Shown here piece by piece: positions 13,201 to 37,133 of a stretch of DNA of 64,000 bases (the first letter of the stretch is position 1; the number at the start of each line of letters is the position of its first letter). The notes beneath the pieces are model-generated. The model saw nothing but the letters and a program-made list of their open reading frames with translations, was not told the DNA's origin and did not search any database. Made by a program: the position numbers and the translations under genes. Location of the stretch: contig NC_092675.1 of NCBI RefSeq assembly GCF_964355755.1, positions 30,042,912-30,106,911 of the forward strand. Direction: 5' to 3'. This DNA comes from Antedon mediterranea. Taxonomy: Eukaryota; Animalia; Echinodermata.

Positions 13201-14842
13201 TTTTGATATACTTTATAGAAAAAATATATATATATTATTCTTAATAGTTGGCTTATTATATATTATTATACAATAAAAACACCACAATGTTTTTTATTGA
13301 CTTTATTAAACATATATATCATTATTTAGAACAGTTAAATTAAGTATCATCGATTTGCCATTTCGTTTAAAAGAACGTATCACATTCAATCTGTAAAAAA
13401 AGAGAATATATTACATAATATTAATAATGTAGGTTGTTATTTACGTCCGAGGAAAAGAAAACCTGTCGATCGAAACAATGACAATCAAAAATTACAAAAG
13501 AATGACAATCAAAGCGCACACGGCGTTCCATACAAATTACCGTTATTGAACTAGCGGCCGCTTTGGTTGGCGGGAGGCCGCTTCGACCGTAAATCCGTTA
13601 TCATACCAGGGAGGGAGTTGTAAACAACTCCCTGATCATACCTTCTTAATTAGTCAGCTCATCATAGCAGTTGGTGGGAAGGCCACGTCTGCCTTGTGCT
13701 CATGATACTGCTGTAGGTAGGAGGAGTACATCATCAGTCTACAGACCACTACAACAACCAATTTTGATGCAATACAAATACTACTGTAGTAGGGCCTATT
13801 TGTAAGTGTTTGTGATATGTTGCCTATTTATTTGAGTGAGGGATTTCATTATAATATTTTACCAGAGTAGTCATTTGGTAAGTTGGTTTTTTTGAAATCT
13901 ATTTTATTAATTAATTATTATTTAATTTTTTTGTACTATAATCTATGGTTGTAACTTGGTGTAGGCCTAAAGTTGATTTAAGTAGTATTTTGTTTTCTAA
14001 GTAGGAATGTATTCCCATTGTTGTATTTTCTCTCCTTTTTTTTGGTTTCCCTGGACCATGAAGAAATAAGTAACTTAAATAAAGAAATAAACTTATTCTC
14101 CATGCTTGGATGCATGCACCTTCTCAAGTTAAAGTGCCACTGATAAAAAAAAAGTGCAGTGCCAATACATTCATTATACTTCAATTATATTATTATAATC
14201 AGCAAGGATTTGTGGCACACTAAAGCGAATCAGACATAAGTTGGAATTTTCAAAATTAAGATGTTCACAAATACTAAAACTACATAATTCAAGATTTAAA
14301 ATACTGAAAAAAAATCTCTTGATACTATTTACTTCCAGAGAGAGATGTCACAGTCTAAAGTTTTGGTTGTTAAATTACAATCAGTTTTTTGAGTGTTTTT
14401 AACAGATAAATCACAAGTAAAAACAAAAAAACAGGGCGTTTTTATGTTTGCGCCTTGTTAAAGGGGTATACTAATTGTTGTTGTATTTCAATGAAACTTT
14501 GCACCTTTGTTCACTAACTAACTATTGTTCTATTATTATGCTCAATTTTTATTAAAAACAACCCATTGGAACATTTTCAATTTAAGCATAAAACATGATA
14601 GGTTTTATGAAAATCTTGCACATTTTCAAACCAACAGACAACACAAAATGTTAAAAATCCTGCATTTATTTGTCTAAAAATAGAAAAACATTAAGATAAT
14701 GTAAATAAGTACCTGTTTCAACTATCATTTTCCGTAAAAAGTAAAAGTAATTTTTCAGCCTTTTATTGTTTTCTACACTTTCTATGTAACACTAACAGTA
14801 ATGATTGTAAAACATGTTAACACACAGAATGGAAAAATCGCC

Positions 14843-17800
14843 ATGGCAGGACCACTGATGACATTTTCTATTCCAAAGGTTAAAAGATCACCAGGTAAAG
14901 CAATTGCTATGTTAATTAATAGAGCAGATTAGGAATGGAGTAAATGTTGATGTGAAATTTGATTAAAATTACAGAAGACGGTTCTCTATGGTGAAGTAAA
15001 AAATCAAGATTTAGTTGGAGAAGGTGGTGTGAAGAATGCTGTTTCATCTTTAGCAAATGGCAATTTAAATACAATGAGTAACAAAACAATGCAATACAAT
15101 CGATAATAGTTCTGTTATGTGCTTTAAGAAACAACGATATTTGTGGAATGTGTTATAACAGTTGTAAAGAATGGCAGAGGGGTAAAAATTAAACTTGCTT
15201 ATGTTTTTTCTTAAGGAGGCTGTAAAAATTTAGGACTCTTCTAAACACTAATTTTAAGGTATTGATTTTTCAGGTTGCAGATCTGATGTTCCACCGACTT
15301 CCAGGAACTATAAAGAAACTCTACAGACAATTCAAAGTTCATTTTTGGATTCAAATTACAAATTCGAAAAAGATTGCCATATCAACTCTATTGAACAAGT
15401 TGTGAATAAGAAGTTTGAGAAAACTTTCCAACAGAAAAGACAAGAAGTGAGATCTGATCTAAACTGCGTTAATGTGGGCGAACGGTTTGCCTTTGCAATT
15501 GTCGACTGCGAAGAAAAAGTCAAAGAAGTGTGTCGGGATGGAATTAATAGCGGCCATGAAAAATTGACCTATGCGACCTTGGGAAAACAAACATGTGGTG
15601 TTCATTTGTGGCAGAATGCTGATGTTGTTCTACGATCAGTTTCCAAAATCCCTAGAACATTACACCTTATTGTATACAAGGTAATAAGAATTTTACTTTG
15701 ACAGTAGGATACATTATTGGTGCATTTTTGTGGTACGGCAATATACCTGTCTAAAGTTTTCTAAAGTTTTTTAAAAACTTTTTTAGTAGACCCAGTTTAG
15801 TCCATTTTGTTTTACATTATTTCTTGATTTCCATTGTGTAAACATTACATATAATACTATAACATCAATGAGTTACAACAGCATTGGAATTTTAAGAAAA
15901 AAAATAACTTACTATGTAAGTTAAAAAAATGTTTTGCCAGGATTGAATGGAATTGTTAACAATAACTCATACAGTACTAGCACATAGAAAATAAAACATT
16001 GCAAGGTGCTGACTTGTTAACCTCTCCATTTTTAACCTGATTGATCAACATTTCTAATAATTGCTTTAGGTGATACGTGGCAGAGCAAAACTCATTTCTC
16101 CAAGTATTGATAGTGATGTTGAACCCACGCCTAACTTTGAATGCCATGTAAGCCGCGATTTTCCAAAAACTACAGCATCACTTGGCCAGTTAATTAATAC
16201 CACACAGGTGAGTACAGAAAGCATCCGTTTATTACTGTATTATTAAATGTAAAATTTTTAGAATATTATTCTGCATTAATCGTATTTTATCTATTGTTTT
16301 TCTATCCTCCTTAGATTTTTATCTATGAATACGACGAGGAATGCCTACCGGTTAAGCGTCCCAGACATTGTTATCCTTATGCGGTTGTTACTTTCTCCAA
16401 ACTAATACATTCGCAGAAGCACCAATTATTGCCATGCATTTCAGATGTTGAACAAGAGTCTATGCATTGGTCTTCAGATGATCTGATGTCCAGATATATG
16501 AATGACGAAGTGATTACTGATAACACAAAATTGAGTAAACCTTGTGAAAATAAATCACATAAAGTAGGCATTTTTCAATCAGAGCAGGATGCAATAGTGT
16601 TTAGATTAAAAGAGAAATTAGCAAAAAAAAAGATGGCTGTAGAATCAAGTTCTTGGAAAATGAAAAACAAATTACAGACAAACTCTTCATCCAGTTGTGA
16701 CAGATTTAAAATCAAAGCAAAAACAAACCAAACTATTAAAGATGCCAATGATAATGACAGTAAACAATTATCTAAAGCAAAAAAGCAGAAATTGATTGCA
16801 GCAAACGAAGAAGATATGAATTCAGTAAAAGGAAATAGTTTGCTTTCAAAGAATAGTACAGATGATGTTCACAGAAAGTCGCATTTAACCCAAAAAATTG
16901 AAAGCAATGAAGCATGTAATATGTATTTGGAACACCACACCTCCACATGCCTCAACAAACATCATTTATCTAGTGAGAATAAGAAAGATTACTCAAAGAT
17001 GAGAATTAAAGAAAATGCTGATAGAAGTGATTGCTTGCCGGAATCACAATCGATGATACCATTGTCCACCAGTTCCTCAGACATCACTGTCATTACATCT
17101 GGTGATAATCAAAGCTTGTCTCCAATGATAAAGAAATCATTTGTGCTAATTCGCTTCACACGAAAATGGCTGAAAAAATATGGCTGGGGAGTTCAGACTA
17201 TGACTAAAAAATTACTTTGCAATTGCATCAGAGTTCTCAAGTGGATTGAAGTGATGGGAGTGAGTTATCGAGATAAAGGAATGAATCATTTTAACTTTGG
17301 CATCTTAGATGCCCGTGTGCTTCTTTACTACTTATCGTTGCATCGTGGTAATTTTGGTAGAAAGATTCAGTTGGTGAATGAGGACATTGATCAGAAAGAA
17401 TTTAGACATATGATAGATGGTTTGTTACTGCTTTATAGATTTGAAAAAATGCCTGAAGATATGATTGTATTGGTTGAAAATTTAGTTGAAAATAGAAATT
17501 TGAGGGCTGAAACATCCAGGGTAGGGCTAAATGCTGATAAAAGCAAGAATACAGTGGTCCAAAACAGACAGAAGAGAGAAGACAACGCAGATGACGATAC
17601 AGATTTAGAAGCAGTATCAGGTTACCTGGGGGATCAAGCCTGTTCTGGTACAAATATAGATGAAATTAATCTGAAGGAATCAAGTGAACCCAAACCCACA
17701 TGCACTGATCCTCATCCTCATGCTTTCATCTCTGAAGATAAGATTGTAAAAATAATTCAAAATTTATCAAGTAGAAGAATTGAATGTAAACAGAATATCA

Positions 17801-20775
17801 CTTTGAATATTTATAATGTTTGTTCTGATTGTGGTATGAAGAACAATCAGACCATTATCATTGAGTCAGATGACAATGAAAGTGATGATTTGAAAATGGA
17901 GATTAGTGAAAAACCTTTACAACCCATTGAAGACCATTTAGATACTGGGGCCATGGAAACTGAGATGGCAGAAGTTCCTTTACAAACCAAAAATATACAT
18001 GTTCTTTCAACTGTTGCAGCCAGCGATTCTGATAATGAAGACCAATTAGAAGCCGAGTGTATGATCAAATTGAAGATGGCAGAAGTTCCTTTACAAACCA
18101 AAAATATGGATGTTCTTTCTAATGTTGCAGCCAGTGACTCTGGTATTGAAGACCATTTCGAGTCTGAGGCCATAATCAAATTGAAGATGGCAGAAGTTCC
18201 TTTACAAAGCAAAAATATGGCTGTTCTTTCAAAATTTGCAGCCAACGAGTCTGACATTGAAGACCATTTAGAGTCTGAGGCCTTAATCAAATTAAAGATG
18301 GCAGAAGTTCCTTTACAAACCAAAAATATGGCTGTTCTTTCAAATGTTGCAGCCAACGAGTCTGACATTGACGACCATTTAGAGTCTGAGGCCATGATCA
18401 AATTGAAGATGGCAGAAGTTCCTTTACAAACCAAAAATATGGATGTTCTTTCAAATGTTGCAACCAACGAGTCTGACATTGAAGACCATTTAGAGTCTGA
18501 GGCCATGATCAAATTGAAGATGGCAGAATTTCCTTTACAAACCAAAAATATGGCTATTCTTTCAAATGTTGCAGCCAATAAGTCTGTTATTGAAGACTAT
18601 GTTCTTTCTGACATTGAAGACAATTTAGAATCTGAGGCAATGATCAAATTGAAGAAGGCAGAAGTTCCTTTACAAACCCAAAATATGGATGTTCTTTTAA
18701 ATGTTGCAGCCAATGAGTCTGATAATGAAAACCATATTCTTTCAACTGTTGCAGCTAATGAGAATTGTATTAAAGACCATTCAGGAACTGAGGCCATAAA
18801 GATGGGAAAAAAGCCTTATCAAACCAAACATGTAGATGCAGGTCTTTCAGTTGAAGCCAACAAATCTGATATTGAAGACCATTTAGAATCCGAGGCCATG
18901 ATCAAATTGAAGATGACAGAAGTTCCTTTACAAACCAAAAATATGGCTGTTCTTTCAAATGTTTCAGCCAATGAGTCTGCTATTGAAGACAATGTTCTTT
19001 CAAATGTTGCAGCCAATGAGTCTGACATTGAAGACCATTTAGAGTCTGAGGTCTTGATCAAATTAAAGATGGGAGAAGTTCCTATACAAACCAAAAATAT
19101 GGATGTTCTTTCAAATGTTGCAGCCAATGAGTCTGATATTGAAGACCATGTTCTTTCAACTGTGGCAGCCAATGAGAATGGTATTGAAGACCATTCAGGA
19201 ACTGAGGCCATGATTAAATTGAAGATGGCAGAAGTTCCTTTACAAACCAAAAATATGGATGTTATTTCAAATGTTGCAGCCAATGAGTCTGTTATTGAAG
19301 ACCATGTTCTTTCAAATGTGGCAGCCAATGAGTTTGACATTGAAGACCAATTAGAAACTGAGTGTATGATTAAATTGAAGATGGCAGATGTTCCTCTGCA
19401 AACCAAAAATATGGATGTTCTTTCAACTATTGCAGCCAATAAGTCTGACATTGATAGGGCATGTTTTTCAAATGTTATAGAGAATGAAGAAAAACCTCCA
19501 AAAGATGTGAACAATATCGAAGATGCATTGGAAACTGTGATGGTAAACAGGGCTTTGCGAATGAAATGTGCAGTGAACCTTCTAAAACTTAAAGAGATTA
19601 ATCTGGAAAATGGAGGTAATGATAAAGAACCCTCTCTCCTTCCTTCATCTTTGGCAAAAACAACTAGAAAATGTGCAAAGAACATTTCAAGACTTAAAGA
19701 AATTGATGTGGACAATGGAGTTAATGATAAAGAACCCTCTCTTCTTCCTTCATCTTTGGAAATAACAACTAGAAAATGTGCAAAGAACATCTCAAGACCT
19801 AAAGAAATTGATGTGGACAATGGAGTTAATGATAAAGAACACTCTCTTCTTCCTTCATCTTTGGCAAAAACAACTAGAAAATGTGCAAAGAACATTTCAA
19901 GACTTCCAGAAATTGATGTGGACAATGGAGTTAATGATAAAAAACCCTCTCTTCTTCCTTCATCTTTGGCAAAAACAATTGGAAAATGTACAGTGAACCT
20001 TTCAAGACTTGAGGATATTGATCTGGACAATAGAGTTCCTTCATCTTTGACAATAACAACTAGCAACCCTGACAAATGTAGTTCACAAGATTTAATTACA
20101 ACCCCTGCCAAGGGAGTTAAGCTGAAGAATAGTACTGCTATTTTTGAAGAACATGCTTATGACAAGTTAAAGAAAACCTTTGTATCAAGAGATCATAAAG
20201 GTACTAATCGTACTAAGCAGACAATTAGTTCTAATGAAACCAATAGAGCAGATAACACCATGTCAGATAACATTTTTCAGGAGTCAAATAATACTTCCAG
20301 TGTTGCTCGTCGTTTTCTACTTAGTAATGGAGACAAACATTCAAATGATATCAAGATAGTAGGTTGCCGACAATTAAGTAAATACAATTGCACTACCCAT
20401 TCTTCTAACATAAATAGTGGCCATAACGAGTCTGATTTTGAAAAAAGCAGGTTGATTATGGAGACGTTTTCAAAATATAACATCAATCGAAAACGCACAA
20501 GAAGTACAACTTCTATATCAAACTCTCCTCCGGTCAAGAGGTGCAGAGATGTGCCACCTAGAAGAAATTCAGAAAGATATGACACTTTGGATAGTACTCC
20601 GTATATGGCCTATCGCTCGCCACATGGAAGACGGTCAAGTGCTAACAACGTTAGGCCTATGTATCCAGAATATGTTGAGAATAATCGAAACATTAATCGG
20701 GCAGCAGACGACAGTCCGAGAGAAAGGGTAACAGACTCCAGAAGAAGTTATTGGTGGAATAATCTACTTGAATGA
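14843..20775 (+). CDS. TASOR/TEX15-like protein, paralogue A (N-terminal DUF3715 pseudo-PARP domain plus long repetitive tail), ~1685 aa
   Basis: Exons: 14843-14894, 15274-15680, 16070-16207, 16315-20775 (5058 nt, in frame). Motifs FSIPKVKR, VVNKKFEKTFQQKRQE, ERFAFAIV, TLGKQTCGVHLWQNADV, IVYKVIRGRAK, EPTPNFECHVS and QIFIYEYDEECLPVKRPRHCYPYAVVTF match the TASOR/TEX15 DUF3715 pattern (DPTPxxECHVS; YFYEY...RPRHxxPYAVV). Confidence 0.88.
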
Positions 20776-22769
20776 GTGAGACAAAGACGAAGAAATGATG
20801 AATACTCGCAAGCTATTTATTATAACCATAATAATTGTTAATGATTTATTATTATTCATTTGTGCTTTCTGGTTGTTTTACACTTTTATTGAAAACGATA
20901 CCTAAAGATCATGCTAGTGTACTGTTGGTTGTTATTTTAAGTTTTGCATTGTAATTCTCTGCCTTTTTTTTGTTTTTCTTCTTTTTTTTAAACTTTCATT
21001 CACTAATTAGTAGAATCATTTGTTACTTTGGTATTCTAATTTGTTTTAATCATATTTGTATGATGTCAATGCTCCTCAGATCGTCAACATGCAAACAGTT
21101 GATGAGAACAACTAAATAAGTATAAGAATGACGTCATTAGCATTTAGCTTCAGGACTAATTATTTATTTTAATTTATTTTACTGTATTTCTAACAAAATC
21201 ATAATCATAGTACATTTAATACTAAAGACTATAACGATCGTTGTATTTTAAATCTCCTTTCATCTTGAATTCTAACTAAACTTTTGTAAATTTAAAAAGT
21301 GTTATACAGTTAGGTATTAATTTGATAATTGTTTGATAATTAAGATTAACATCATTTAATGGTTTAATTTTTAAACAGTTGATAGGAAAAAGTATTTTAT
21401 TTTAATATTAATGATTAAAATTATGTACAGTATAAACAAATATTGATTTGTGACACTGTATCTAAGATGTACTGTAGGCCTATTAGTAATCAGATGCAGC
21501 TTTTTGTAAAGCAATTTTTATTTTTATATTATAAATTCAGGTTAAATAATGTATACAATTTTCCATTTTCAATCACGTATATTAGCAATCAAACGTGTGT
21601 AAAAATGATGTGTACAGTATAGCAATTTTACCAAATCTTACATTATAACACATGTAGGTACACATTGTTAATGACTCTCTTATTTTGTACATACAGCAGT
21701 GTTTTTAAATTATTGAAGTTTTGTTGAAATAAATATTTAAATACAGTAGATGTTGATTGTGTATTACCCACATATGTATATGTGTGTGTATTCATATTTA
21801 TTCAGTTTTTATATTTTTTTAATAACTTATTATATTTTTGTTTTATTTATTTTTTACTTTTTTTTACTTCGTGATGTTCTTGATTCACTTCAAAGGGGAG
21901 GTGACTTTGAATCAATGTAGCTTGATGTCTGGTTTCAAATGGCGCCAGTGTCACAGGATTTATTGACATATTAATAATTAAAACTTCACTCCCAAAGACT
22001 TTGTTTATATGTGGAGCAACTTGTGGTACACAGTACAAAAACGTCGTATGAATAAAATACGAATGACTAAACTTAATTTGACTTCTAGTCTATGACTCCA
22101 TTTATAACATTTTCGATCTTTAGGCCTACCCCTCAGTATACCACGATTAAACGTTTACAATTTCTGTCTAACGCATACTGTTTTATACCGTTTAGTGTGT
22201 ATGTATTATTTTTACAAGAGCAATACTTATACATCGTATATTTCTACGGTATACGTGTTTATATGCAGCAGCAGGTACAGTGTGTATAGTTCAGAGACCA
22301 AGTTTGATTCCGGGTGAATAAATAATTGCATACAAGGATACGTGGGTGTCGAAAGACACTTTGATATTCCAAATAAGGAAATCGTTACAACATATTCATG
22401 GTAAAGACGATGATGTCATTTTAATTTCATTTTAAAATATTTATGTGATGAGATCATAATCACCACGACAGGCCTATATAGGCTATGGTAGCTACTTTCA
22501 TAGATAGTCCTACACATGGAGGTATAAAAGTATAACTCCATGGTCCTACACGTATAAAAACCCAGTTGTCTGAAAGCTTTCAATTTGTGAACGGCATGAA
22601 GTAAAGTAAGTTGATGTGTGTTACCACCCTCTTTTTAAGATCAAATAATTTTGTTCAGTTTCATGGTTAATTTTCCTTTTTGTATACGGACGTGCCATTA
22701 TTGTTTTGCTTTGGGATATTTTGTTCGCGTTTTTTAGGATACCTGTCGCTTCAGCACGGGTATTGGTGA

Positions 22770-23400
22770 TAATATCACTACATTTTTCATAAACACTCCT
22801 TTCCGAACTTTAAGGACAAGCTGGAGACGACGGTCACAGAGCCTATCAAGAGAAAATTGTTCTAGGGCTGCAGTGTACGAATAGTACCCCTTCCCGTAGT
22901 ACAATTCTTAAAACCCTCTTCTAGACCGATTCGAGGTCACAGCCTAATTCGGAAGTCAGGGAGGAGTGCCAGGAAGGATAAGCATATTCAATTATGGGGC
23001 ATATGAAAGATTTATAAATCTTGATTAACTGATCTTCTGGTGCACCAAATCTTGTAGGGACCGACACAATATTATACATGGCTTTGGCCTTGCTAACGAT
23101 CTCACCAATGTGTGTATCCCACTTAAGGTTATCTTTGATAGTTAAACCTAAAAGCGTCAATTGCATAACAGTCTCAACTTGAACTCCATTATTAGTCAGT
23201 AAATTATAGTAACCAGAAGTTTTGCAAAAAGTTAATCTTCACTGATTTACACTTATTATAGCCTAGGGTTAAGGGCCATTTTATTTATTTTACACCATTC
23301 CTCTAAATTACTAAAGTACGATTGGATAGAGTCCAGACAGTTATTTTTTGAGATATCAGCGAATTAGGTAATTAAATCGTCGACAAATTTCCACCTTGTA
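22770..23400 (-). mobile_element. Degenerate LINE (CR1/L2-group) reverse transcriptase fragment
   Basis: Minus strand reads WKFVDDL near 23390, then LLGLTIKDNLKWDTHI...YKSFICPIIEYAYPSWHSSL, with stops and frameshifts. Confidence 0.8.
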
Positions 23401-23484
23401 ATGCAATATAATGCCGATCGAGTCATTGACCATTACTCGAAAAAGGCTTGGGCCAGATTTCGTTCCTTGTGGACACCACAATGT

Positions 23485-23955
23485 ACTAGAAATAATAGTA
23501 TTCATACTCATAAGACTAGATCCTCCTTACCACTTACCAAATTAACATTAATGCAACTTAATATCCGTTATAGTGGCACCAAATTATTTAATGATTTCCC
23601 TGACGAAATTAAAAATGGCACCTTCAAAACAAATATTTCTTTTAAACTTAAACGAATTCTACTCCATAAATAACTAATAATAATAAATAACAAAATAAAA
23701 TATATTTATTCTAGTTTTCAGTGCGCTTCCATAGTATTTTGATATTATTACATTGTCGTTGTTTTGCTTTACTTGTTTGTTTGTCTGTCCTGTCACTTTG
23801 TTTCTGTTTGTTCAAACTTCAATATGACCTTTAACTTGCTACCCGTCACGTTTTTTGAAGGGTGACCTTCAAAAGTTATTACTCCCTGGGTTTTGCCACT
23901 TGATTATTTATATTAAGTTGTTATTTTGTTTACAGAGAAAGAAATAAATGTTATT
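23485..23955 (+). mobile_element. 3' end of a second LINE (CR1/L2/Crack-like)
   Basis: SIHTHKTRS...IRYSGTKLFNDFPDEIK...SFKLKRILL*, then a T-rich 3' UTR ending in aaataaatgttatta. Confidence 0.65.
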
Positions 23956-24965
23956 AGCCTAAGAATGAATGTTAATTCGATATGTCATGTAGACAGCAGA
24001 ATGGAGAGAAGATAACCTTTTGTTGGAAATTAATTAAAACGGCGTAAGAAGCTCGGATTAATAAAAGATTAAATGACCATTTAGTCACGTTGCTCTTTTT
24101 ATCATTTTCAATAAAATTTTACTACGAACTTATGAGGCCACCCAAGGTCGCACTAACATTTTTTTCAGTTATAATAAGTAGTTCCCTTTATTATTAACCA
24201 AAAATTCTAAAAGTGTACTCGTTGATAATTATATCATAGCAGTAAATTGGTATTGAATTAAGAATATTACTCTTATCTTGTTAAATACAATGTAATATCA
24301 TGTTCTATACTTTGAATTGTTACTCTCACCATCGATAAAAAAAATAAACTGTGTTTCTAATAATATTACTTAATAAAATGATTGATAATTGAAATTAATT
24401 TCGTTGTTCCTTGGTCAAACTTTCACGGATCACTGATTTTGACCAAAAAGAAAGAGTCACTGATGACCAATGAGCTTGGCTTAATTACTGATGACTCAGC
24501 AAATTTGCATTAACAAAGAGGTACAAAACCTGAAAACTGTCTGCAATTGCGACACAAGGAAAAATAACTTGTGATGTGAATCTCTTTAGTTGTTGTCTCA
24601 GAGATAGAATATGAATCCGATATCGAGGAAGGCGCCAACCAAGGTCATGCGATATCAAAGGTCAGGGTAAAATTTCAAAAATGCTCCGACTTTTTACTCC
24701 ATGCTGATCAGAGAGGTATTTACACCTCCCTGCTCCAATCAAGCTGAAACTAAGGTATAGTTTTCAAACTTGGTGGGTGCCACTCCCGGTGCCACTCGGT
24801 ATAAGAAAAACGAGTTAATAGGTCGTCAAGGTCAAATCTCAAAATGATAGGGTGAGTATGAATCTGATCGCCACCAAAGGTCATGCGATGTCAGAGGTCA
24901 AGTAACTTTTCAAAATTGCTTCGATCAAGCTGGAACTCTTCATCATTAGTATTTCATTTATGGAA

Positions 24966-25916
24966 CTGTCACACCAAAATCAGTCCGGGCCAAAATCGGT
25001 CCGGCGGACCAGTTTTGGCTGCCAAAATCAGTCCGGTGGACCATTTATGGCTACCAAAACCTGTCCGGCCGGACCAATTTTGGCCGCCAAAACTGGTCCG
25101 GCCGGACCAATTTTGGCCGCCAAAACTGGTCCGGCCTGGATAAAATCGGTCCGGGTAGTAGGACTGTTTTTTGCCGCCAAATATGGTCCGGTCTAACAAA
25201 TATATGGTGTGCAAAATGAGTCATAATGTATATCATTAAAAAAAGGCCATGATTAGTCATTATATTGAAAACTACGGGGTTTTATTTGTTATTTTAATAT
25301 TATAAATTAAGCCTGTTTTTTTATTATCATTATTAGTAGTAACTCATCAATAATTAGTAGGCCTACTAATTGTTAGGCTTTTTGTATACAATATGTATCT
25401 CTGTCTGTTTTTAATCCATTTTGTTCTTTTTTAACATCTTCGTTTCCCCATGATGTTAAAAACAATTTAATTTATTAATTTTTTATGGTTAATCAATCAA
25501 TATATCAATTCAATACAATTATTATAAAACAATTATCCAATATTGATTAGGCTGAGGAAGGAAAAAGGCCTCAATCATAAATAAAATCTAGCTGGCAATT
25601 TTTATCAGCGTCTCATACCCGTTCGTGTGAGCGTGCAGGCCGAAATATGAGTGAACACCTAAGTCATGTTTTTAGATAAAATACATTTATTTATAGTATT
25701 TATCCGACAAGATAACTTACTAATATATATCATGGGATATTTTTCTAGCCATAAACAACTTAAAACAGCATCATAGGCCTAGTAATTCAATTAAAATCGA
25801 CAGAAGAAAAGCCCGGACCGATTTTGGCAGTGGCGGACTGCTTTTGGCCACAATTTTAGAGCCAAAACTGGTCCGGCCGGACCGATTTTGGCCCCGGACC
25901 ATATTTATCGTGACAG
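24966..25916. mobile_element. Non-autonomous DNA transposon with subterminal palindromic repeats
   Basis: Termini CTGTCAC...GTGACAG. Both ends carry multiple ccaaaa(c/t)tggtccggccggacc(a/g)attttgg palindromic units around an AT-rich core. No clear TSD. Confidence 0.75.
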
Positions 25917-27041
25917 AGCCCTAGTTATTGTTTTATATCATAAATGTATTACCAATTACATTTTATAATAATCTATTTTATAAAATATAGTCCTAATAAT
26001 TTAATTTCAATTAGGGCCTACACTTTTTTTTTTAACAATGTACTTAGGCCTATTGTATTTAGCCTACGTATGAACCACGATTTATGAACACCTGCCTCAT
26101 TGTCTTGCTTTTGTTCTCTATATAGGCCTATTGTTATTATATTGCGGAAATGGGAAGTAGACCCTGACGGTTATCTAACCTTGAGGTCACGAGGTCATGG
26201 GAATGGTCAATGTTTATATAACTAAATCTTTTCATTTGATATTTTATTAGTATTTACTGTTGTTTTTTAAAATATTATTTTCAGTTTCTCAGTAGGCCTA
26301 TTACTATTGTCAATTTATAGTTATTACTACTAATTTGGTTGTATATCTCAGTTATACCATGGAGTCCCATACCGACTACGACAGCGATCGTGTCGGTGGG
26401 TTAATTATTATTTTCTATTGTTTGTTGTATATAGGCTATATATATTTATTTTAAGAACGCATTGTGCATGAACGTGTTTCACCGTTGTAAAGGTGTAGCT
26501 TCAATACATATTATTATTATTATAGCCTCTCTTCTCCCAGAAGTGCTTTGGGGTTTGCGCATGACTAGTCCGAGTTTCTAAATATCCATTTTCCAACCAT
26601 TTTACCCGCTTGATACAGTTTCTCAATGCGTCTCCGGCGTCCCCTGCTTCATAAGTTAACTTCCTAAAGGCGCAGCGCGGAAAAAATATTTACACATCAA
26701 TAATATACTGTACATACAATTTAATTGAATATGATTAATACTAAAAATCAATCAATATAATTGTAATAATTATATCGAAGTCATTATTTTTTTTATTTGG
26801 GCAAATAACTTCATTAAAACTAAAACGTCTATTTAAAGATTTGCTTTATTTATATTTAGGGACAAAACAACAAACATTGATTACATTACGCAGGTACTTC
26901 TGCTTCTGTAATTAGATAATTTTGATTTAAATTGTTATTATTGATTTATTATTTATCGATGATCAAGAAAGAAATGAATTTCAAATACTGTAGTACAGTA
27001 ATTAAATAAATAGGCATCTCCAATATTAACAATATTGACTT

Positions 27042-27056
27042 AGCGCCCTCTGTTGG
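27042..27056 (-). promoter_or_regulatory. CTCF-like motif at the edge of a CpG-rich patch, possible promoter of paralogue B
   Basis: agcgccctctgttgg is close to the reverse complement of CCACCAGAGGGCGCT. It is followed by CpG-rich sequence and a candidate donor (gtaagg) at 27300. Confidence 0.4.
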
Positions 27057-28579
27057 GGAAAAACCCTTGTTTTGTACATCATCACCACGCCGCGCCTGAT
27101 TTCTGTTGTGTGCGCGGACGACGGGGGAGAGAGAGGAAGGTGACTTCTTGTGTCTTGTTCCTGAGAAAACGGGGGTGTTTTTGGCAAGACATAGGCCTAC
27201 AGTACGTACACGAGGAACAATTAGCTTGTTTAATCTTTCATTAAAGTGTGACAGTTTATCTTATAATCTGAACACAATGATGATGTTTGATTTTTAAAAG
27301 TAAGGATCATTCAATCTTCTTAGCCCACTTTTTGCCGCGGAAAGATTTAACATAAATAACATTCACACAAAAGGAGGCACCGTTATGATGTGACATGTCT
27401 GCAAGCAGAAACAATGGACGACGATCATAAGAAGAATAGAAGTTTCTAGATCGAGTAAATGAAGTAGTTTACAATACGTCTTCAGAAAACCACAAGAATG
27501 CAGCCAGTCACTGTGTTCGTTACAATTCACGAGGTTCACACACTACATACTACATTAGTCATTATAGAGAGGCCAATTCCTTCATACAATTATTCGAGCT
27601 GCAGAGTCACATGTCCAAAGAATTTTAATTAGTTTTTCAACAAGGTTAAATTCATACTGCATTATTTAGTAGCAGGTCAACTGTTTTATTCAAGAATTCA
27701 GCGCTTTGAAACCTTTGTCTCTTGCGCTTTATATGTTATTTATTATTTATTATTATTAATTCAGTCAGGGACTTTTCATACTCATATAGGGCCTCGGTGT
27801 TTTTGCTGCAAAAAAAATAATTGGTTATCAACCGTGTGAATAAATTAACCAAATTTCTTGGCAGCCACAATTTTCAGTAACCGGTTAAATGGAAGTCTGA
27901 AAATAATGGTTAAAAAAACCCAATCGATTCTGTGTTTAAGTAATTAGTGCTGTGTAACACAAAATAATGGTTTTGATTAACAGCAGTCAACTACACTGCA
28001 ATAACGTGCAGAGCCCATTGCATTTTGGGTAATACCACTGATTTCCATTGACGACCACCCACTGATTTAAATGGTTATTTAGAAGCAAGAGGTGAAAGAA
28101 AAGACCCATATTAAAACATGCTACAGTATTACAAGGCTATAAAATAGAAGGAAATTGCCTGGAAATGGAAGTACTGTGATTCATATACAGAGAGTTAATA
28201 TCCCATTTTGGCTCCGATGATTTATTCAAGTCGATTGAAGGTAAACCGTGTAAAATCAGCCGAAATGATTGTGCAGTTCAAAATGGATCACCGTGTTAAT
28301 AGATTAAAACTTGGTTTTCAGTTTTAACCATGACAGTCACAAGTTGAGTATCAGTTAAGTCTTAAAGCGTCCACTAAGCAGTGATGTAGCCACAAGAAAT
28401 AAAGTGGTCCGGTTTTCGCAAGAAAAGAGAACAATCTCTGTTCAAGCCACTGAGTTGTCAAAGACTTCTGTAAAAAAGTGATCAGACTGAAAGGTGTAGG
28501 ATTGGTTATAGCATGAAAATTGTACTGTGAGAATAAGGAAGAACAAGAAAAATTCTCTCAAAAGCATCATAGTGGTAGT

Positions 28580-30225
28580 GATCAGTGTCAAGCATCAGTT
28601 CAGCCTTACTTTATTCCAGTGGTGGTGTCAAGAATTAGTGCAGTCTTATCATGTCAGATTGGGAGGGTCAAGCATCAGTTTAGTCTTAACACATAGACAT
28701 AGAAGTGGTCTAACAAATCACAATGGCAGTTCTGAGCATAACTTCGGAACACATCAAGTTGGTGATGTCAAACATTAGTTCAGTCTTAACTTATCACAGT
28801 GGAAGTGTCAACATGAGTTCAGCCTTATCACATCACAGTGCAGGTGTCAGTTGAGCATCAGTTCAGTCTTTAAACATTACAATGACGGTGTTGTGCATCA
28901 GTCCACACATCATGGTGGTGTATGAAGCTTTAGCTCAGTATTATTGCATCACAGTGGTGTTATCAAGAATTAGTTCAGTCTTAAACTATGAGGGAAGTGT
29001 CAAGAATCATGGTGGCGTATCAAGCATTAGTTCAGTCTTTAAACATCACACTGGCGATGTTGAGCATCAGTCCATGCATCAAGGTGGTGGTGTCCAGAAT
29101 TAGTTCAGTCTTAATGTATCATGAGGGAATTGTTGAACATCAGTTCAGTCCTAAACGCTGTTTTCCTGTCGATGTTAGTCGACGCTATCCATTGAAGTTT
29201 TAACGATTTACAGGAAAAGGACTAACGACGACACAAAACTTCGGCAATTTAAAGGAAACTACGTAATAATTAATGATCGTTGACAATCGCGAGAGTGGAA
29301 TCCAGTTTTATTCTAGCGATATCGCAACGTTAAAACGCAAGAACTGACCAATCATCTTGGCGATACAGTACATCACATAATTGATGGAAAAATCCCGCTG
29401 ACTACATTTATTTTTATTACATCGCAGCGCAGTCAAGGCTAGGCCTAGCGAAAGTGACTATAAAATGATTAAATGAGGAAAGTAGGCATGGTATTAGGTA
29501 GGTCTAAGTCTTCAGCCTACTCCAAAATGCTACTGAGAACAAAGAACCATCAGTATAGAGATAGTAAGAAGACAGGAGTTTCGAATCTAACGTTCAACGC
29601 TAGAAATCAAATGTTCATGCTATCGTTATTCTTTCAACTTGATCGTTTTCAAACGATCGTCGTTGAACTTTTAACGATCATTGATAATAACGTCAACAGG
29701 AAATCAGGCATAACATACCACGAGGGAAAAAGAATTTGTTCAATCTTACGTATCATGAGGGAAATGTCAAGCATCAGTTCAGCCTTTAAACATCACAATG
29801 GCGATGTTGAGCATCAGTCCATGCATCATGGTGGTGGTGTCAAGCATTCATTCAGTCTTAATGTATCATGAAGGAAATGTCGAACATCAGTTAAGCCCTA
29901 ACATACCACGAGGGGAGTGTCAAGCATTAGTTCAGTTTTAGGAAAATTTCAAGCATCAGTTTAGCCTTTAAACATCACACGGCGATGTTGAGCATCAGTC
30001 CATGCATCATGGTGGTGGTATCGAGCATTAGTTGCATTAGTTCAGTCTTAATGTATCATGAGGGAAGCGTCAAGCATCAGTTCAGTCTTCAAACATTACA
30101 ATGGCGATGTTGAACATCAGTCCATGCATCATGATGGTGGTATCAAGCATTTATTCAGTCTTAATGTATCATGAAGGAAATATCTAGCATCGGTTAGTCC
30201 TAACATATCATGAGGGAAATGTCTA
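28580..30225. repeat. Degenerate minisatellite region (tcaagcatcagttcagtcttaa... units) interrupted by a MITE
   Basis: Many imperfect copies of tcaagcat(c/t)agttcagtctt plus the higher-order block gcgatgttgagcatcagtccatgcatcatggtggtgg. Confidence 0.85.
29155..29710. mobile_element. PIF/Harbinger-like MITE with TAA TSD
   Basis: Imperfect TIRs ctgttttcctgtcgatgtta / taacgtcaacaggaaatcag with TAA on both sides. An uninterrupted sister repeat unit (ccctaacataccacgagg, ~29896) shows the empty site. Confidence 0.8.
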
Positions 30226-30889
30226 TATAGTGGAGGTCAAAAAGCATCAAGATAGAGGGGTTATAAATGCATGGTACATGCCCTGGAGAAAAATTTACCT
30301 GCCATCACAGCTGGTCAGGTGTTTGCTAGGACCTACGTCATCTGAATCTGAAATCCACCAAAACTATGTTAAGGAATCAATGATGAACAGAGGCGTAGGC
30401 TGGGTTGCTGTCAAGGTTGCAAAAATTGTAAAATTCAGGCCAAGAGGCCTAAAAAAGTGGACTTTTTTGGGGGGTGTAGCCGATAAATTACCATCATTAC
30501 CTACTGTCACAAATCGAAAGCTCCACATTACAGCCAGCCTCACTGGTTTTCTCAGAGCATTATATCAGCAGTAAGGCAGTAAGAACATTCCTCGTTTTGC
30601 ATATCCATGTTTCAAGCATTAGCAATCTATTCAATGTAAACAGAAATGAATATCATCATTTTTGGCCAATACCACACCTGACTAGACCTGGATGCATGAG
30701 GTTGAAATAATTGTGCTCTGTTTTACTTGACTGAACCTCCTACAGTACAAGAAGCACTTATTTTTCTGCCCATGTTGCCATCAGTATTCTAAAGCTTACT
30801 ACACCAGATACCAAATACTGTAACAAGGATTATAAAAACAGATACCATTCGATTTACTGTGTTATATGTTTTTTGGTTTGATAATACTC

Positions 30890-31200
30890 ATCCTCCATTG
30901 GGGAACACTGGAGTAACTCCAGACACGGCCGGGTTTTTTGGTGGAAATTTGGATTACAGTAGGCCCTCTACAGACACACATCAGCCAGAGGTGCAACGCT
31001 AACCCAGATCAGCACACGAAAAGTACTCTTTGCGAACACTATGTACCATGCTCTTATTTAGGGACCAACGGCTTTATGTCCCATCTGAACGGGGAAAAAG
31101 AGGCAATGAGTGTAAAGCATCTTGCCTAAAGGATACAATCAGTATGGTGTACAAAGTGACTTGAACCTATCACATGGTAGGCTATTGCGCCATCATTCTC
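30890..31200 (-). mobile_element. tRNA-derived SINE with a conserved central domain (Meta/CORE-like)
   Basis: Minus strand has A-box tggcgcaatag and B-box ggttcaagtc, then tatcctttaggcaagatgctttac and cagatgggacataaagccgttggtccc. A related fragment lies at 46234-46330. Confidence 0.65.
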
Positions 31201-31209
31201 TGGTCTATA

Positions 31210-31330
31210 CTGTACATCATCTGATACTATATTGGCAGATGGTCTCCCATCCAAGAACACAACTGGACCAATGTAGCTTAACTTTAGTGATCTGACGAGA
31301 ACCAGTGTTTCAACGCAGTATGGCCATATA
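31210..31330 (-). pseudogene. 5S rRNA-derived sequence (pseudogene or SINE3-type head)
   Basis: Minus strand tatggccatactgcgttgaaacactggttctcgtcagatcactaaagttaagctacattggtccagttgtgttcttggatgggagacc is colinear with metazoan 5S rRNA, with CpG-type decay. Confidence 0.8.
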
Positions 31331-31502
31331 AGCGATAATCTAGATTAGATGTGGTTACCGTCTTGTCTATAATCTAATCCCATTTGGTCCCGGGGTAGAT
31401 CAACTATTTTAGATTTTGATTCCTTTTTTGTTTCTGTCGGCAAGCTAAATGAAAAGAAAAATTTAGATTTTCAGAATACAGTACCAGTTTATGTTCCCCA
31501 AT

Positions 31503-32413
31503 GCAGTATCGGCTTACTTGCGTGATGCACTACTAGCGTGACCATGCTTGATACTGTGGTTGAATATTCAAGGCAGTATCAGCTTACTTGCGTGATGCAC
31601 TACTAGCGTGACCATGCTTGATACTGTGGTTGAATATTCAAGGCAGTATCAGCTTACTTGCGTGATGCACTACTAGCGTGACCATGCTTGATACTGTGGT
31701 TGAATATTCAAGGCAGTATCAGCTTACTTGCGTGATGCACTACTAGCGTGACCATGCTTGATACTGTGGTTGAATATTCAAGGCAGTATCAGCTTACTTG
31801 CGTGATGCACTACTAGCGTGACCATGCTTGATACTGTGGTTGAATATTCAAGGCAGTATCAGCTTACTTGCGTGATGCACTACTAGCGTGACCATGCTTG
31901 ATACTGTGGTTGAATATTCAAGGCAGTATCAGCTTACTTGCGTGATGCACTACTAGCGTGACCATGCTTGATACTGTGGTTGAATATTCAAGGCAGTATC
32001 AGCTTACTTGCGTGATGCACTACTAGCGTGACCATGCTTGATACTGTGGTTGAATATTCAAGGCAGTATCAGCTTACTTGCGTGATGCACTACTAGCGTG
32101 ACCATGCTTGATACTGTGGTTGAATATTCAAGGCAGTATCAGCTTACTTGCGTGATGCACTACTAGCGTGACCATGCTTGATACTGTGGTTGAATATTCA
32201 AGGCAGTATCGGCTTACTTGCGTGATGCACTACTAGCGTGACCATGCTTGATACTGTGGTTGAATATTCAAGGCAGTATCAGCTTACTTGCGTGATGCAC
32301 TACTAGCGTGACCATGCTTGATACTGTGGTTGAATATTCAAGGCAGTATCAGCTTACTTGCGTGATGCACTACTAGCGTGACCATGCTTGATACTGTGGT
32401 TGAATATTCAAGG
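31503..32413. repeat. Near-perfect tandem array, 13 x 70 bp
   Basis: Unit gcagtatcagcttacttgcgtgatgcactactagcgtgaccatgcttgatactgtggttgaatattcaag. The only variant seen is a>g in units 1 and 11. Confidence 0.98.
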
Positions 32414-32599
32414 CTTTAACAAAACCAATATGCCTACTGTGATATAATGTAATGTGTATTTGTAGAATTAGTTGGTTTGGCTTGAATTTATGATGATCAT
32501 TGTTTTGGTTATTTTCATCATCCATTGTTTCTAGATTTGTGTGTAGTTTCATTAGATTACATGCTATTTAATTGTTTTTACAGGAATTTTGGGGTCACC

Positions 32600-35500
32600 A
32601 TGTCACAACCAAAAAAGGTCTACTTGATTCCAAAATTACCTAATGAAGGTAAGATGTATTTTATGTTGCATCAAGATAACAGTAACATGACTGATCATGA
32701 CATGTAAAGATTTGTTATGAAAAGTAAGGATAAAAGCATTTCGCCAGCCAAGGTTTGTTAGCATGCTCAACAATGGCTTATTGTCAGCAGAGACATAGGA
32801 ACCTGAATAAAAAAGTTACAGTAATGTGGTTCAGTATAATGGCTACCCCTGCTACCCCCATGATTAATCACTCCTTTATTTTTTAGGCTGCAAGAATACA
32901 ATTCAACCAGGAACTCGCACTTATCAAGAAATATTGCAGTCTATAAAAGATGCATATTTCGAATCAAGTTATGTGTTTGAAGATAACTGGACTATCTCAT
33001 CTGTTGATCAAGTTATTAACCAGGATTTTGAGAAATTATATCAAGACAAACGGCAGGAATTAAGATCAGAACTAAAGAGCAGTGATGTTGGTGAACGATT
33101 TGCATTTGCAATTGTTGGCAGTGAAGAGAAGGCAAATGATGCATGCAAAAATGGAGTCTTCAGTGGTCATGAGATGTTGACCTCTATGACCTTAGGCAAA
33201 CGAACTGATGGTGTTCATGTGTGGCTGTATTCAGACATACCTCTGAAATGGGCTACCAAAAATATTTTGAAAGCCTACCTAATTGTGTATAAGGTAATGC
33301 TTTACTGTAAAACCTAATTTCCACTTAGTAAAGGTGGCAGTGAAAAACTGAGTGATTACCTTAATACCATAATTGCTATGACATACTTTGGTAACCCATT
33401 GCAAATTTAAAGTTTCAGTGCTTGCATGTAGACAATAGATAACATTTGGTGCCTTTTTAAAGCAGATTTTTCAATGATACTTTTACAATTGTTTTAATGC
33501 AAACAAGCTTTCAGATGTTAATGCATGAATGATGAAATGGAAGATATTTTGAATTATAAATCTTCTCATCTGATTATTTATTGACAGGTAATGCGAGGAC
33601 GAGCAAAATTGGTGAAACCAACCGTAAACAGTAATATCGATCCAACACCAAACTTTGAATGTCATGTAAGCCATGTAACAAAAACTGCAAACTTTGGCAA
33701 GTTGGTAAATTCCAGCCAGGTAATGATAACATTGGCTCTTGAAAAGATCTTTTAGGCTTTATGCAAAAACCATCTAATATCTCCACATTGGCACGCATAA
33801 TGGCTGCATGAGTGTGTCTGACTGAATTTCACAATCATCAGCCTAATGTTGTTTTGTAAAGTAAAACATTGAACTTCCTAATTTAAAAAAAAGTTTTATT
33901 CTCATTTGTCCATATTGTAGATGTTCATTTATGAGTATGACGATGAGGCTTTACCCAGCAAGCATCCTAGGCATTGCTATCCGTATGCAGTAGTCAAATG
34001 CACAAGAATTCACAACGATGCACTTCCTTGGAGCAAAAAGAAAGTTGCTTCAGAAGAAGGAAAAAGTAAATTAGTACGTTTGATGGAAGTGGATACACTT
34101 CCACCAACAAAAGTTGTCAGGTCTAAAAGTAAAAAGAAAGTTACTTTCAAGGAATCTGTGAATACACTTCCATTGAAAAAGGTCTCTGGACCCAAAGGCA
34201 AAAAAAAAGTTGTTTTGAAAGAAGAGAAATGTACATCAATACTTAAGAAGGAGTCTGTGATCAAGGAGTCTGTGACTGGAGAGACCGTTACCGGGGAGTC
34301 TGTGACTGAGGAGTCTGTGACTGAACAACCAAATAAATTGGTGTCATTTATTGTTCTAGATGAGTATCATTGTGAAAACTGTAACTCAAATCAAACGTCC
34401 GATGAAGAAGAAACTAATTCCACAAATCAGATCAAATCAGATTCCAAGAAAACTGAAAATTGTCAACTGAAAAGAAATATAAATGAAAGAGGAAAGAAAA
34501 AGGCATATGCTGGAAAACTAGTCCGTAGAAAAAAACGTGATCGTTGGAGAAAAAATTACAAAAAGATTGGTAGATCGTTTATTAACGCACAGCCAAAGAA
34601 AGATTCCGATTTTGGACTTGCTGCTGAATATTCCAAATTATGTAATGAAAAGTTGTTACAAAATACAAAAAAGCAAGCTGTAAAAGAGAAGATGTTGCCT
34701 AGTCCAACAGAAGTAAAAAATGAACCTGTTGTTCACACTGGAATTAATGGTTTTAACCGGACTAATGAATTGATAATTCAAAATGGATCAAGTAATAATA
34801 GCAAAATACAGCATGTTTTCGAATACAACCATTCAGGAATTGCACATCCTGTATCTTCAAATGTTGATTATACTTCCAACAACCAATTAAAGACTGAATC
34901 TCCACAAGATGTTTTACCTGGATCTGCAGGAGTAAATCATCAGAATTGTAACACTTTTTCTCAATCAATTCCTACCTTGGTTATACCAGCAAGTCCACCT
35001 AATCAAATCAGTGATTTAGAAGATAAAACTGTTCCGCTGAACCAATCATTTGATTCCAACCAGAATGCAATGAGGCCAGCAGTTTCTTACAAAAATGGTG
35101 CCTATTCTCCATCCCAATCTATTTTAGATTATAGTGTTCAAGGGGATAACCAATCATTTGATTCCAACCAGAATGTGATGAGGCCAGCAGTTTCTTTCCA
35201 AAATGGTGCCTATTCTCCATCCCAATCTATTTTAGATTATAGTATTCAAGAGGATAATCGGGAAGTTATGGACATGGATGTTAGTAGTCCAGAACCAAAT
35301 GTGCCAATTCGACGTGCTGACACATTTTTGCAAAACAGTGTTTCTAATACAGCTGGATGTATTAACAAATGTTTTAAAGACACAATTGCTGAATATAATG
35401 TTTATGAAGATGAGAATAAGCAATTACATGTGTCACCTGTGAAAAAGACAAAAAAAATAAATAATTTTCATGGAAAGACATTTTTAACTAAAGAAGATCA

Positions 35501-37133
35501 TTTTGAAATACCTGTAGAGACACCAAATGGGTATACCAAACCTCCTGACCCTCGTCAGATGCTCTATCGCCCTCAGAAGGTGTCAGATTTGATTGTTCTA
35601 CAGTGGTCGTCGAAAGTTTGTAATAACGAAGTTCCCAATGTATCCGAAAAGAAAACCAATTTTGATTGTCCAGACAAAAGAAAAGAAGTCAAAACATCAG
35701 ATGTATCACCTAATTTGCAGTCAAACACAAGTTGTGTAAAGCTTGAATATGGTCAAGTTTCTGTAATTAAACACACCGCATTACAGACAATGTTGACAAT
35801 GAATCAAGAAATATTAAAGAAATCGGATAAAAATCATCAGACATGTATTGAAAAAAAGAATGTATTGGCATCAACACAGATGAATGGTCATTTACAACTA
35901 TCAACAACATTTACTGATGTTGTTAGAAAGCAAGAAGGGCTACAAGGTCATGACCCCAAACTGAAGAACAAGCAAATTGAAGCCTCAACACAGACAGATA
36001 ATTCACAAAATGATTACCTACAAACTAAGTTTATTTATAAAGACGACCTCTTGCGTATTATAGTAAATTTAGAGGAAAGTACAATCTCTGCAAATTTCCT
36101 GTTTGAATTGTTTGAGCGCAATGGAATAGTTTGTTCTTCTACTAACATGATGTCAAATTTGTTAGAGAACGATCAAAATATGAAGGAGAGGAGGAAGACT
36201 AACGAATTAAAAGAGAATGAAGATTCAGTTGATTACAACTTATTGTCAACTGTATCGCATGACAATGATCCATGTCAAACTACACAATCTGAAGTTAATT
36301 ATAAATGTGAAGATGTAGCTAATAAAAAGGAGATCATAACGGAAGAAGACCACCAAAATGACGATGCTGCTTGCTTTCACATTCCAACAACCGTAACAAA
36401 ATGTTCAAATCCTTCTATACAGATAGATGTAGCAAAAACCATTGACCATTGTCCTGCAATAATAACGACCAGAAATGAAGATCCAGTGCAGAACTTGTGC
36501 AAAGGTGAAGTTTCTTACTTGGATGCTGGGAGTGAGGTCAATTCATTGGCCATGGATACTGACCTTTCCATAAATAATGCTAATCAGAAAGATAGAATGG
36601 ACAAAAACCCATTTAAAAGATTCCCCGAAGACTTACAAGGAGTAAATCCAAATCTCATTGAACATCCTCATGAGGAAGAACATTTCGGTAAAAGAAGAAG
36701 AGGACGTGGAAAGCGACGACATTCTTCCAAAGACGGTGGTGTTATCAACAAAGATGATTTAAGACATCAGATTAATGAAGGTCGAAAGCACAGATTATCG
36801 GGTGACTCTTCAAAGTCTCCTGCTAAAAGCTCAAATATCAGTTCAGATAAAACTGATACTGATACTTTACACAATGTAGTAAAGCGCTTTAGAAGAGAGT
36901 CATCTAGTTACATGTGTAATAATAACGAGCATTTGCAAAATCATAGTCGCATTGGTACAAAAAGTTACGAAGATTACAGACACAGAGACCCATTTGAGAA
37001 CCAAACATGGCATCATCAAAATAAGTATGATGATAGGTGGGTTGAACGATGGCCGCCAAGGTATTTGAATGGTACGTATGTGCAATATGAAGATTATTGG
37101 AAGTGGTATCATTACTATTCACAATGGCCCTGA
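32600..37133 (+). CDS. TASOR/TEX15-like protein, paralogue B (N-terminal DUF3715 pseudo-PARP domain plus long disordered tail), ~1266 aa
   Basis: Exons: 32600-32648, 32887-33293, 33588-33719, 33921-37133 (3801 nt, in frame). Intron phases (1,0,0) and the 407-nt second exon are the same as in paralogue A. Motifs: YLIPKL, PGTRTYQEIL, ERFAFAIV, TLGKRTDGVHVWLYSD, DPTPNFECHVS, QMFIYEYDDEALPSKHPRHCYPYAVV. Confidence 0.88.

Follow-up and report, generated by a model that had tools for sequence, protein, structure and literature searches.

Two neighbouring genes of the crinoid Antedon mediterranea, here called A (upstream) and B, raise the question of how proteins that begin with the same domain, the pseudo-PARP domain DUF3715 (RDTS) known from TASOR and TEX15, vertebrate proteins that silence transposons, came to end in giant exons of no visible resemblance, and to which kind of DUF3715 protein they belong. 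The genes lie on contig NC_092675.1, and all coordinates given below are positions in the 64,000-nt stretch of it that was analysed as a whole (the window). The reading we favour, with modest confidence, is that A and B are tandem duplicates from a branch of DUF3715 proteins without a SPOC domain, likely the branch of TEX15 as well, that they likely split the tail of their ancestor between them, and that they encode predicted non-catalytic nuclear adaptors of co-transcriptional silencing.

Both genes have four exons on the forward strand, the stop codon of A (20775) and the start codon of B (32600) being 11.8 kb apart, and the models agree with the annotated proteins: that of B corresponds letter for letter to XP_071953096.1 and that of A, beginning at 14843, to the last 1685 residues of XP_071954281.1, whose annotated start lies 14 codons earlier, at 14801. 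All six introns are of the GT-AG type with phases 1/0/0 in either gene, and the products of 1685 aa (A) and 1266 aa (B) contain no internal stops. A preliminary description of this locus had reported a same-strand pair about 12 kb apart with common intron phases and terminal exons of 4.5 and 3.2 kb, all of which was confirmed (coding parts, 4461 and 3213 nt), with the addition of a five-exon isoform of B, X2, whose short fifth exon adds no domain. The exon 2 that it called identical is so in length only (407 nt in both genes), the nucleotide identity being 63%. The N-terminal domains of the two proteins share 51% identity over 229 aa (E 5e-75), and no third copy was found in the window. The adenine content of the sense strand is 36.5% in the giant exon of A (16315-20775) and 37.8% in that of B (33921-37133); long A-rich exons of such kind are HUSH targets in mammals (PMC7619638).

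Exons 2 and 3 of both genes matched the Pfam model of DUF3715 (E 8.5e-6 to 1.6e-4; 26 + 23 and 22 + 22 bits), each piece scoring below the Pfam cut-off of 28.5, and a whole-protein scan with hmmscan did not return DUF3715 for A, B or the homologues P0029 and P0011. In a sequence search, however, the TASOR crystal structure 6TL1 matched residues 22-224 of B (E 3e-19), and homology extends across the whole domain to TASOR 111-328, so that together with the exon matches the pseudo-PARP assignment made earlier is upheld. When aligned to TASOR, whose triad is L-Y-Q (Table 1 of PMC7955679), the H-Y-E triad of PARPs reads A-H-Q in both copies; with His in its place, even the tyrosine retained by TASOR and TEX15 is thus lost in A and B, and both pseudo-PARPs are degenerate by alignment and look catalytically dead. 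The preliminary description had rightly suspected a degenerate site and read Gln at the Glu position, but it placed the His position on the residues FAF, whereas the residue concerned is the Ala right after them. A Tyr (in YEY) stands in both proteins at the position of TASOR Y305, according to the numbering inferred from the 6TL1 alignment; this residue of the beta8-beta9 loop is required for silencing (10.1101/2020.03.09.974832). Over 223 codons the two domains differ by a dN of 0.35 at a dS of about 2, the latter near saturation, which shows that the domain has been under purifying selection between the copies.

A homologue search among 1.84 billion representatives gave 288 proteins at E<=0.001; the sets described here are the best 150 of these, for 20 of which names were looked up. 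Sorted by tail similarity, they comprised 61 TASOR-type proteins, 34 of TEX15 and many invertebrate proteins without SPOC, the named members of which came from echinoderms and hemichordates (Asterias, Acanthaster, two from Amphiura, Saccoglossus, Ptychodera) and from Branchiostoma (two kinds), Lingula, Batillaria, Sinanodonta and Argopecten. Long Ser/Arg (RSRSP) repeats form the C-terminal end of the Asterias (P0004/P0152) and Acanthaster (P0005) proteins, for which the label SRRM2-like is wrong. Saccoglossus possesses both a SPOC-less and a TASOR-type protein, and Antedon likewise encodes a separate TASOR-type protein, P0139 (3696 aa), on another scaffold, with an orthologue in Anneissia. A SPOC-region profile built from 23 TASOR-type rows and run on 48 targets matched 12 of them, including P0139 (E 1e-28) and Anneissia P0164, and gave no match in A, B, P0029 or the six frames of the window. 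Neither DomII nor a PIN domain was found in A and B by Pfam and profile searches, nor was the TEX15 domain (PF15326). The earlier statement that the genes lack SPOC, DomI and PIN domains therefore holds, and with a SPOC-bearing P0139 elsewhere in the genome neither gene is simply the ordinary TASOR orthologue.

In a tree calculated with IQ-TREE from 47 rows, chosen from 146 domains after 8 isoform or partial rows had been dropped, 17 TASOR-type rows from sponge to vertebrate, P0139 among them, formed one side (98/96), and the crinoid trio (100/100) stood outside this clade, on the same side of the TASOR split as vertebrate TEX15. Forcing the pair to join P0139 was rejected (p-AU 0.0019), which together with its position outside the clade indicates that the pair did not branch off TASOR recently. 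Groupings of TEX15 with the chordate SPOC-less proteins (p-AU 0.21) or with those of deuterostomes (p-AU 0.23) were not rejected. As long tails without SPOC occur across bilaterians, outside the TASOR clade and together with TEX15, inheritance is a simpler explanation than convergence, and the TEX15-like layout of the pair probably did not arise by convergence within crinoids; the lineage-specific module proposed in the preliminary description finds no support. The distribution suggests that the SPOC-less branch is older than the vertebrate domains by which TEX15 is defined, and the architecture is an old and little-described kind. TEX15 has been called vertebrate-specific by its architecture and its DUF3715 branch ancient in PMC10578480, the tree of which may already include echinoderm members, and DUF3715-only 'truncated Tex15 homologs' have been reported from 21 of 28 cnidarians (bioRxiv 10.64898/2026.09.07.749791). 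No description of the present genes was found in the open-access literature on TASOR and TEX15 in echinoderms, amphioxus and invertebrates.

The last exons of A and B gave no alignment in a direct blastp comparison (best E 0.71), in keeping with the earlier impression that they cannot be aligned. Yet they are not unrelated, since both are homologous to one protein of Anneissia japonica (XP_033106779.1, 2023 aa, a model without exons 1-2), with E 2e-39 for the tail of A and 3e-6 for that of B. In a sliding comparison along this protein, each of 96 segments was scored against tails shuffled locally; with p<=0.01 as the threshold, at which chance should yield some two matches, 13 segments matched B only, 11 A only and one both, in the order B-A-B. 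Residues 96-590 and 1756-1865 correspond to B and residues 956-1275 to A, which in addition shares a short motif at residue 152. A B-only segment at residue 796, lysine-rich and out of order, was treated as chance. Fifteen motifs are collinear between the tails and the Anneissia protein; profiles of the B blocks reached at most 1.7 bits on the tail of A, and the profile of the A domain found no match on the tail of B. The B-A-B order speaks against a mis-joined tandem pair in the Anneissia model. As a single Anneissia protein contains interleaved blocks of both, the ancestral tail was most likely a single one, of which A and B lost different, complementary portions. Since the MDMD and F(H/Y)G..DPR motifs of B are also present in proteins of starfish, brittle star and Lingula, it was A that lost these two. 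The pair would thereby be a clean case of duplicates splitting short motifs inside one giant exon, and would also show how split tails come to look unrelated in pairwise comparison. Over about 72 residues of the domain, A and B are 64% identical, A and Anneissia 64% and B and Anneissia 60%, as against 81% between the TASOR-type orthologues; identities so alike among the three SPOC-less proteins suggest a duplication about as old as the split of the two species, which it may precede.

What A retains, and B does not, is chiefly a predicted helical domain of about 125 aa, for which no Pfam or PDB sequence match was found. Two structure models were of low confidence (pLDDT 38 and 47). Calponin-homology (CH) clusters came out top of a feature search at 0.79, below the trust level; Foldseek with the models returned nothing at E<=0.001 and listed no CH domain, which does not exclude one, and the best hit of a wide fold search (Z 6.6, rmsd 3.9 over 117 residues) falls in the chance range for helical models. 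The block is accordingly no more than a weak lead to a calponin-homology candidate. A word-index search with the helical region recovered only the protein itself and missed the Anneissia homologue, hence it has little value for absence; exon 2 of B likewise recovered its own protein only. Behind the helical domain the tail of A contains in-frame coding repeats, the units of which are all multiples of three nucleotides. Homology of these repeats to the repeat region of the Anneissia protein was considered and not accepted, the similarity being no better than that of shuffles (p 0.5).

What B retains, and A does not, includes the tripeptide DPR at residues 739-741, part of a motif whose conservation reaches starfish, Lingula and amphioxus; no DPR occurs in the tail of A. 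Counted in tails of at least 500 aa, with the caveat that rows from related proteins are not independent samples, DPR is present in 30 of the 35 tails of SPOC-less invertebrate proteins (86 observed, 18 expected), in 25 of 28 TEX15 tails (28 against 5, nearly all at one conserved xIKDPRL site), in 25 of 35 vertebrate TASOR-type tails (39 against 11) and in 14 of 23 other TASOR-side proteins, and permutations of the letters D, P and R are far rarer. The longer form F[HY]G..DPR was present in 9 of 143 tails, two of them isoforms, and in 0 of 143 reversed ones; it is absent from TEX15 and TASOR-type tails, takes the form FHxHKL..DPR in three amphioxus proteins, and has no clear counterpart in the hemichordate member and one brittle-star member. 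Two SPOC-less DUF3715 genes are also found in Amphiura (P0011/P0014) and Branchiostoma (P0017/P0033), with the FH..DPR motif each time in one member and not in the other. The DPR motif of P0139, which matches the SPOC region and has no PIN match, occurs 22 times, on all but one occasion within a C-terminal repeat of 19 residues (2924-3437).

DPR binds WDR82, a protein of transcription termination, in Symplekin, SET1A and ZC3H4; PMC13710762 establishes the binding by crystal structure and mutation and cites SET1A and ZC3H4. The available passages of that paper remark on DPR in TASOR and contain no mention of TEX15. WDR82 co-precipitates with TASOR, which loses its chromatin binding without WDR82 (PMC10915761). 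The DPR of B is thus a predicted WDR82 dock. In TEX15 (P0009, P0012, P0019, P0064 and others; 25 of 28) the site reads S-x-V-I-T-S-(K/R)-x-I-K-D-P-R-L-x-(K/R)-R and lies 100-250 residues past DUF3715, and we regard it as a candidate WDR82 dock; a link between TEX15 and WDR82 was not found in the literature searched, which included passages of PMC7619638. A profile of the TEX15 DPR context picked out no invertebrate site (best E 0.06), so that the DPR sites of the different branches are not shown to be homologous in position. An atlas search with residues 630-770 of B gave no usable match. What is new here is the complementarity of the two tails, together with the occurrence of DPR throughout the family.

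Together these data suggest the following course of events for the favoured reading. After the duplication, A would have lost the ancient MDMD, FHG-DPR and C-terminal motifs and B the crinoid helical domain. As in TASOR and TEX15, silencing itself would be the work of the pseudo-PARP and its tyrosine loop, and the mostly disordered tail would bring this domain to elongating RNA polymerase II, in B by the binding of WDR82 to the DPR motif and in A by way of the helical domain and some other partner, the two copies together covering the two targeting routes of the ancestral protein.

Several points weigh against this reading. The deep branches of the tree are weak and a tree with the pair as sister group to all TASOR-type proteins was not rejected (p-AU 0.09), so that orthology to TEX15 is not established, and the pair is without the TEX15 domain. 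In mammals the nuclear partners of the piRNA pathway are of vertebrate origin (PMC7618676), hence the piRNA link of TEX15 is not transferable to the pair. No homologue of the A domain outside crinoids was found in the sets searched, and the loss of this domain from B would rest on one outgroup gene model without its first two exons. Since the tree groups B with the Anneissia protein (93/71, unstarred), the two copies may have arisen before the species separated, and Anneissia may possess a second copy. Finally, DPR is only three residues long, its counts are not independent by kinship, and some of its known context, the cis-Pro loop, is not to be read from sequence.

The tree is compatible both with TEX15 co-orthologues and with a third old lineage, and the latter is the most serious rival, if an unlikely one: the pair would then represent an ancient DUF3715 lineage marked by FHG-DPR, neither TASOR nor TEX15, that was lost in vertebrates, and the partitioning of the tails would apply all the same. 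A group of 12 rows (95/91) indeed unites the crinoid proteins with those of other echinoderms and hemichordates, with Lingula, with one of the amphioxus paralogues and with one more row, leaving out TEX15, the molluscs and the second amphioxus paralogue, and most of the group, with the FHxHKL..DPR form of three amphioxus proteins counted in, bears the motif that TEX15 and TASOR-type tails lack. Lingula is a long branch, however, the hemichordate and brittle-star members mentioned above are without a clear motif, and the unrejected groupings with TEX15 leave a single, species-tree-like lineage in play. Less probable still is that there is no division of labour, B being the working orthologue and A redundant, drifting or newly employed outside silencing, e.g. 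in meiosis or DNA repair, with the motif losses a neutral decay of disordered tail. That A has lost every motif conserved beyond crinoids, that some 40% of its tail is young tandem repeat and that in crinoids the SPOC-less form of the domain changes more quickly than the TASOR-type form would all fit, but A also retains an open exon of 4.46 kb with repeat units in multiples of three, an intact domain under purifying selection, and a block conserved in Anneissia that B has lost. The idea of TASOR offshoots that lost SPOC and DomI, resemble TEX15 by convergence and gained their tails independently is highly improbable and largely refuted, for although Gln stands at the Glu position as in 60 of 61 TASOR-type rows, and not as in TEX15, and the sister position to the TASOR-type clade was not rejected, the same Gln occurs in 11 of 13 mollusc SPOC-less rows, union with Antedon's own TASOR-type gene was rejected, and the tails are homologous via Anneissia, with motifs common to starfish and Lingula.

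Beyond the duplicates themselves, and more speculatively than the favoured reading, one may conceive, with considerable doubt, that the pseudo-PARP and DPR form an ancestral core of animal co-transcriptional silencing, through which TASOR, TEX15 and the SPOC-less proteins would dock on WDR82 at terminating RNA polymerase II, independently of MPP8, periphilin and PIWI. If so, TEX15 would dock on WDR82 through its conserved xIKDPRL site, a contact so far unrecognised in the piRNA pathway, that pathway would share one termination factor with the HUSH pathway, and the Antedon pair would amount to a natural dissection, with the WDR82 route in one copy and a crinoid-specific domain in the other. The molecular role of DUF3715 and the route of TEX15 to its targets are named as open questions in PMC10578480.

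Read coverage was taken for 26500-38500, on the side of gene B, from one study with a run (X1) guessed to be RNA. Contigs of X1 ending at 37071 and spanning 37042-38323 have the ends expected of the spliced and unspliced intron of isoform X2 (37072-38294), a region that run X2 crosses in one piece, and in another contig of X1 the acceptor of exon 4 of B is preceded by 279 letters of different sequence. These contigs point, if weakly, to transcription and splicing of B; gene A is supported by its annotation and intact frame.

Upstream of A, a multi-exon gene with repeated EF-hand pairs occupies 1083-8091 (+), and downstream of B lie the exons of a protein kinase gene (42125-49713, -), one of them with a Pfam kinase match; the kinase resembles TESK/LIMK. 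A 70-bp unit repeated 13 times with 99% matches (31499-32414) ends 185 bp before the start codon of B, and high-copy repeats lie between the genes at about 28100-29700 and 30900-31700. Three short frames (12739-13107, -; 22924-23238, -; 23368-23670, +) resemble the C-terminal ends of LINE ORF2 and had no Pfam match. The features of both genes are compiled in the table.

Table. Features of genes A and B in the Antedon mediterranea window
Feature	Position	Strand	Remarks
Gene A exon 1	14801..14894	+	Annotated start 14801, second in-frame ATG 14843; F-x-I-P-K motif opening the extended DUF3715
Gene A exon 2	15274..15680	+	407 nt; N-terminal part of DUF3715; Ala and His at PARP His and Tyr positions
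Gene A exon 3	16070..16207	+	138 nt; middle of DUF3715; ends in Gln at PARP Glu position
Gene A exon 4, coding	16315..20775	+	4461 nt; end of DUF3715 (YEY loop, PRHCYPYAVV) and tail; no DPR
Short A motif AIVFRLKEK	16588..16617	+	Anneissia residue 152 on; not in B; p 0.01, borderline
A-only predicted helical domain	17125..17508	+	About 125 aa; 44% identical to Anneissia 985-1110; not in B
Second A/Anneissia block (FISED...NVCSDCG)	17704..17886	+	Likely remnant of its first half in B
Gene A coding repeats	17925..19476	+	In frame; units of 111, 135, 156 and 45 nt
Gene A second coding repeat	19564..20037	+	In frame; 105 nt x 4.5
Gene B exon 1	32600..32648	+	49 nt coding; XP_071953096.1
Gene B exon 2	32887..33293	+	407 nt; A91 and H127 at PARP His and Tyr positions
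Gene B exon 3	33588..33719	+	132 nt; ends in Q196 at PARP Glu position
Gene B exon 4, coding	33921..37133	+	3213 nt; end of DUF3715 with Y202 (TASOR Y305 equivalent); tail with basic clusters
B/Anneissia motifs FIVLDEY, basic cluster, DFGLAAEY, VFEYNHS	34347..34835	+	Not in A
Acidic MDMD(V/I)S motif of B	35268..35297	+	Also in Anneissia, starfish, brittle star, Lingula; not in A
F(H/Y)G...DPR motif of B	35466..35555	+	Candidate WDR82-binding DPR (B 739-741); not in A
Likely B remnant FIYKDDLL of the block behind the A-only domain	36030..36053	+	6.7 bits, E 0.06
C-terminal B/Anneissia motifs PFKRFPEDL, KDDLRHQI	36609..36773	+	Not in A
Gene B alternative last exon, short	38295..38356	+	Isoform X2, annotated; intron 37072-38294

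Compared with known systems, the pair shares with the HUSH scaffolds TASOR and TASOR2 and with invertebrate TASOR-like proteins a domain that is pseudo-PARP by sequence, Gln at the Glu position and Tyr at the Y305 position, and gene B also the DPR motif; unlike TASOR, it has no SPOC-DomI, alpha/beta or PIN domain and stands outside the TASOR-type clade. With the WDR82-binding DPR proteins (ZC3H4/Restrictor, SET1A and fission-yeast Symplekin), B has in common a DPR in conserved context within a disordered protein of nuclear type, but there is no other homology, A lacks the motif, and the dock of B is a prediction from sequence. TEX15 likewise combines an N-terminal DUF3715 without SPOC with a very long, mostly disordered tail and a multi-kilobase exon (at least 5.2 kb in the human gene, from variant coordinates; PMC10206016), is separated in the tree, like the pair, from the TASOR-type proteins and, like B, has DPR in its tail. 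It differs in having one or two TEX15 domains (PF15326), whereas the pair has His for the triad Tyr and exists as two copies with complementary tails. The giant exon of the pair, moreover, begins inside DUF3715, and in human TEX15 the exon at c.700 lies about 10 kb before c.1636, with at least one intron between them; the human intron at c.699/700 may correspond to intron 3 of the crinoid genes, both being of phase 0 and YEY standing at 232-236 in similar TEX15 rows. The same architecture as in the pair is found in invertebrate DUF3715-only proteins, i.e. those of the cnidarian preprint and of the branches in PMC10578480, which are noted there by domain presence, the passages available describing neither tail motifs nor duplication nor partitioning. 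The nearest relatives of the Antedon pair are the DUF3715-only proteins of starfish, brittle star, hemichordate, amphioxus and Lingula.

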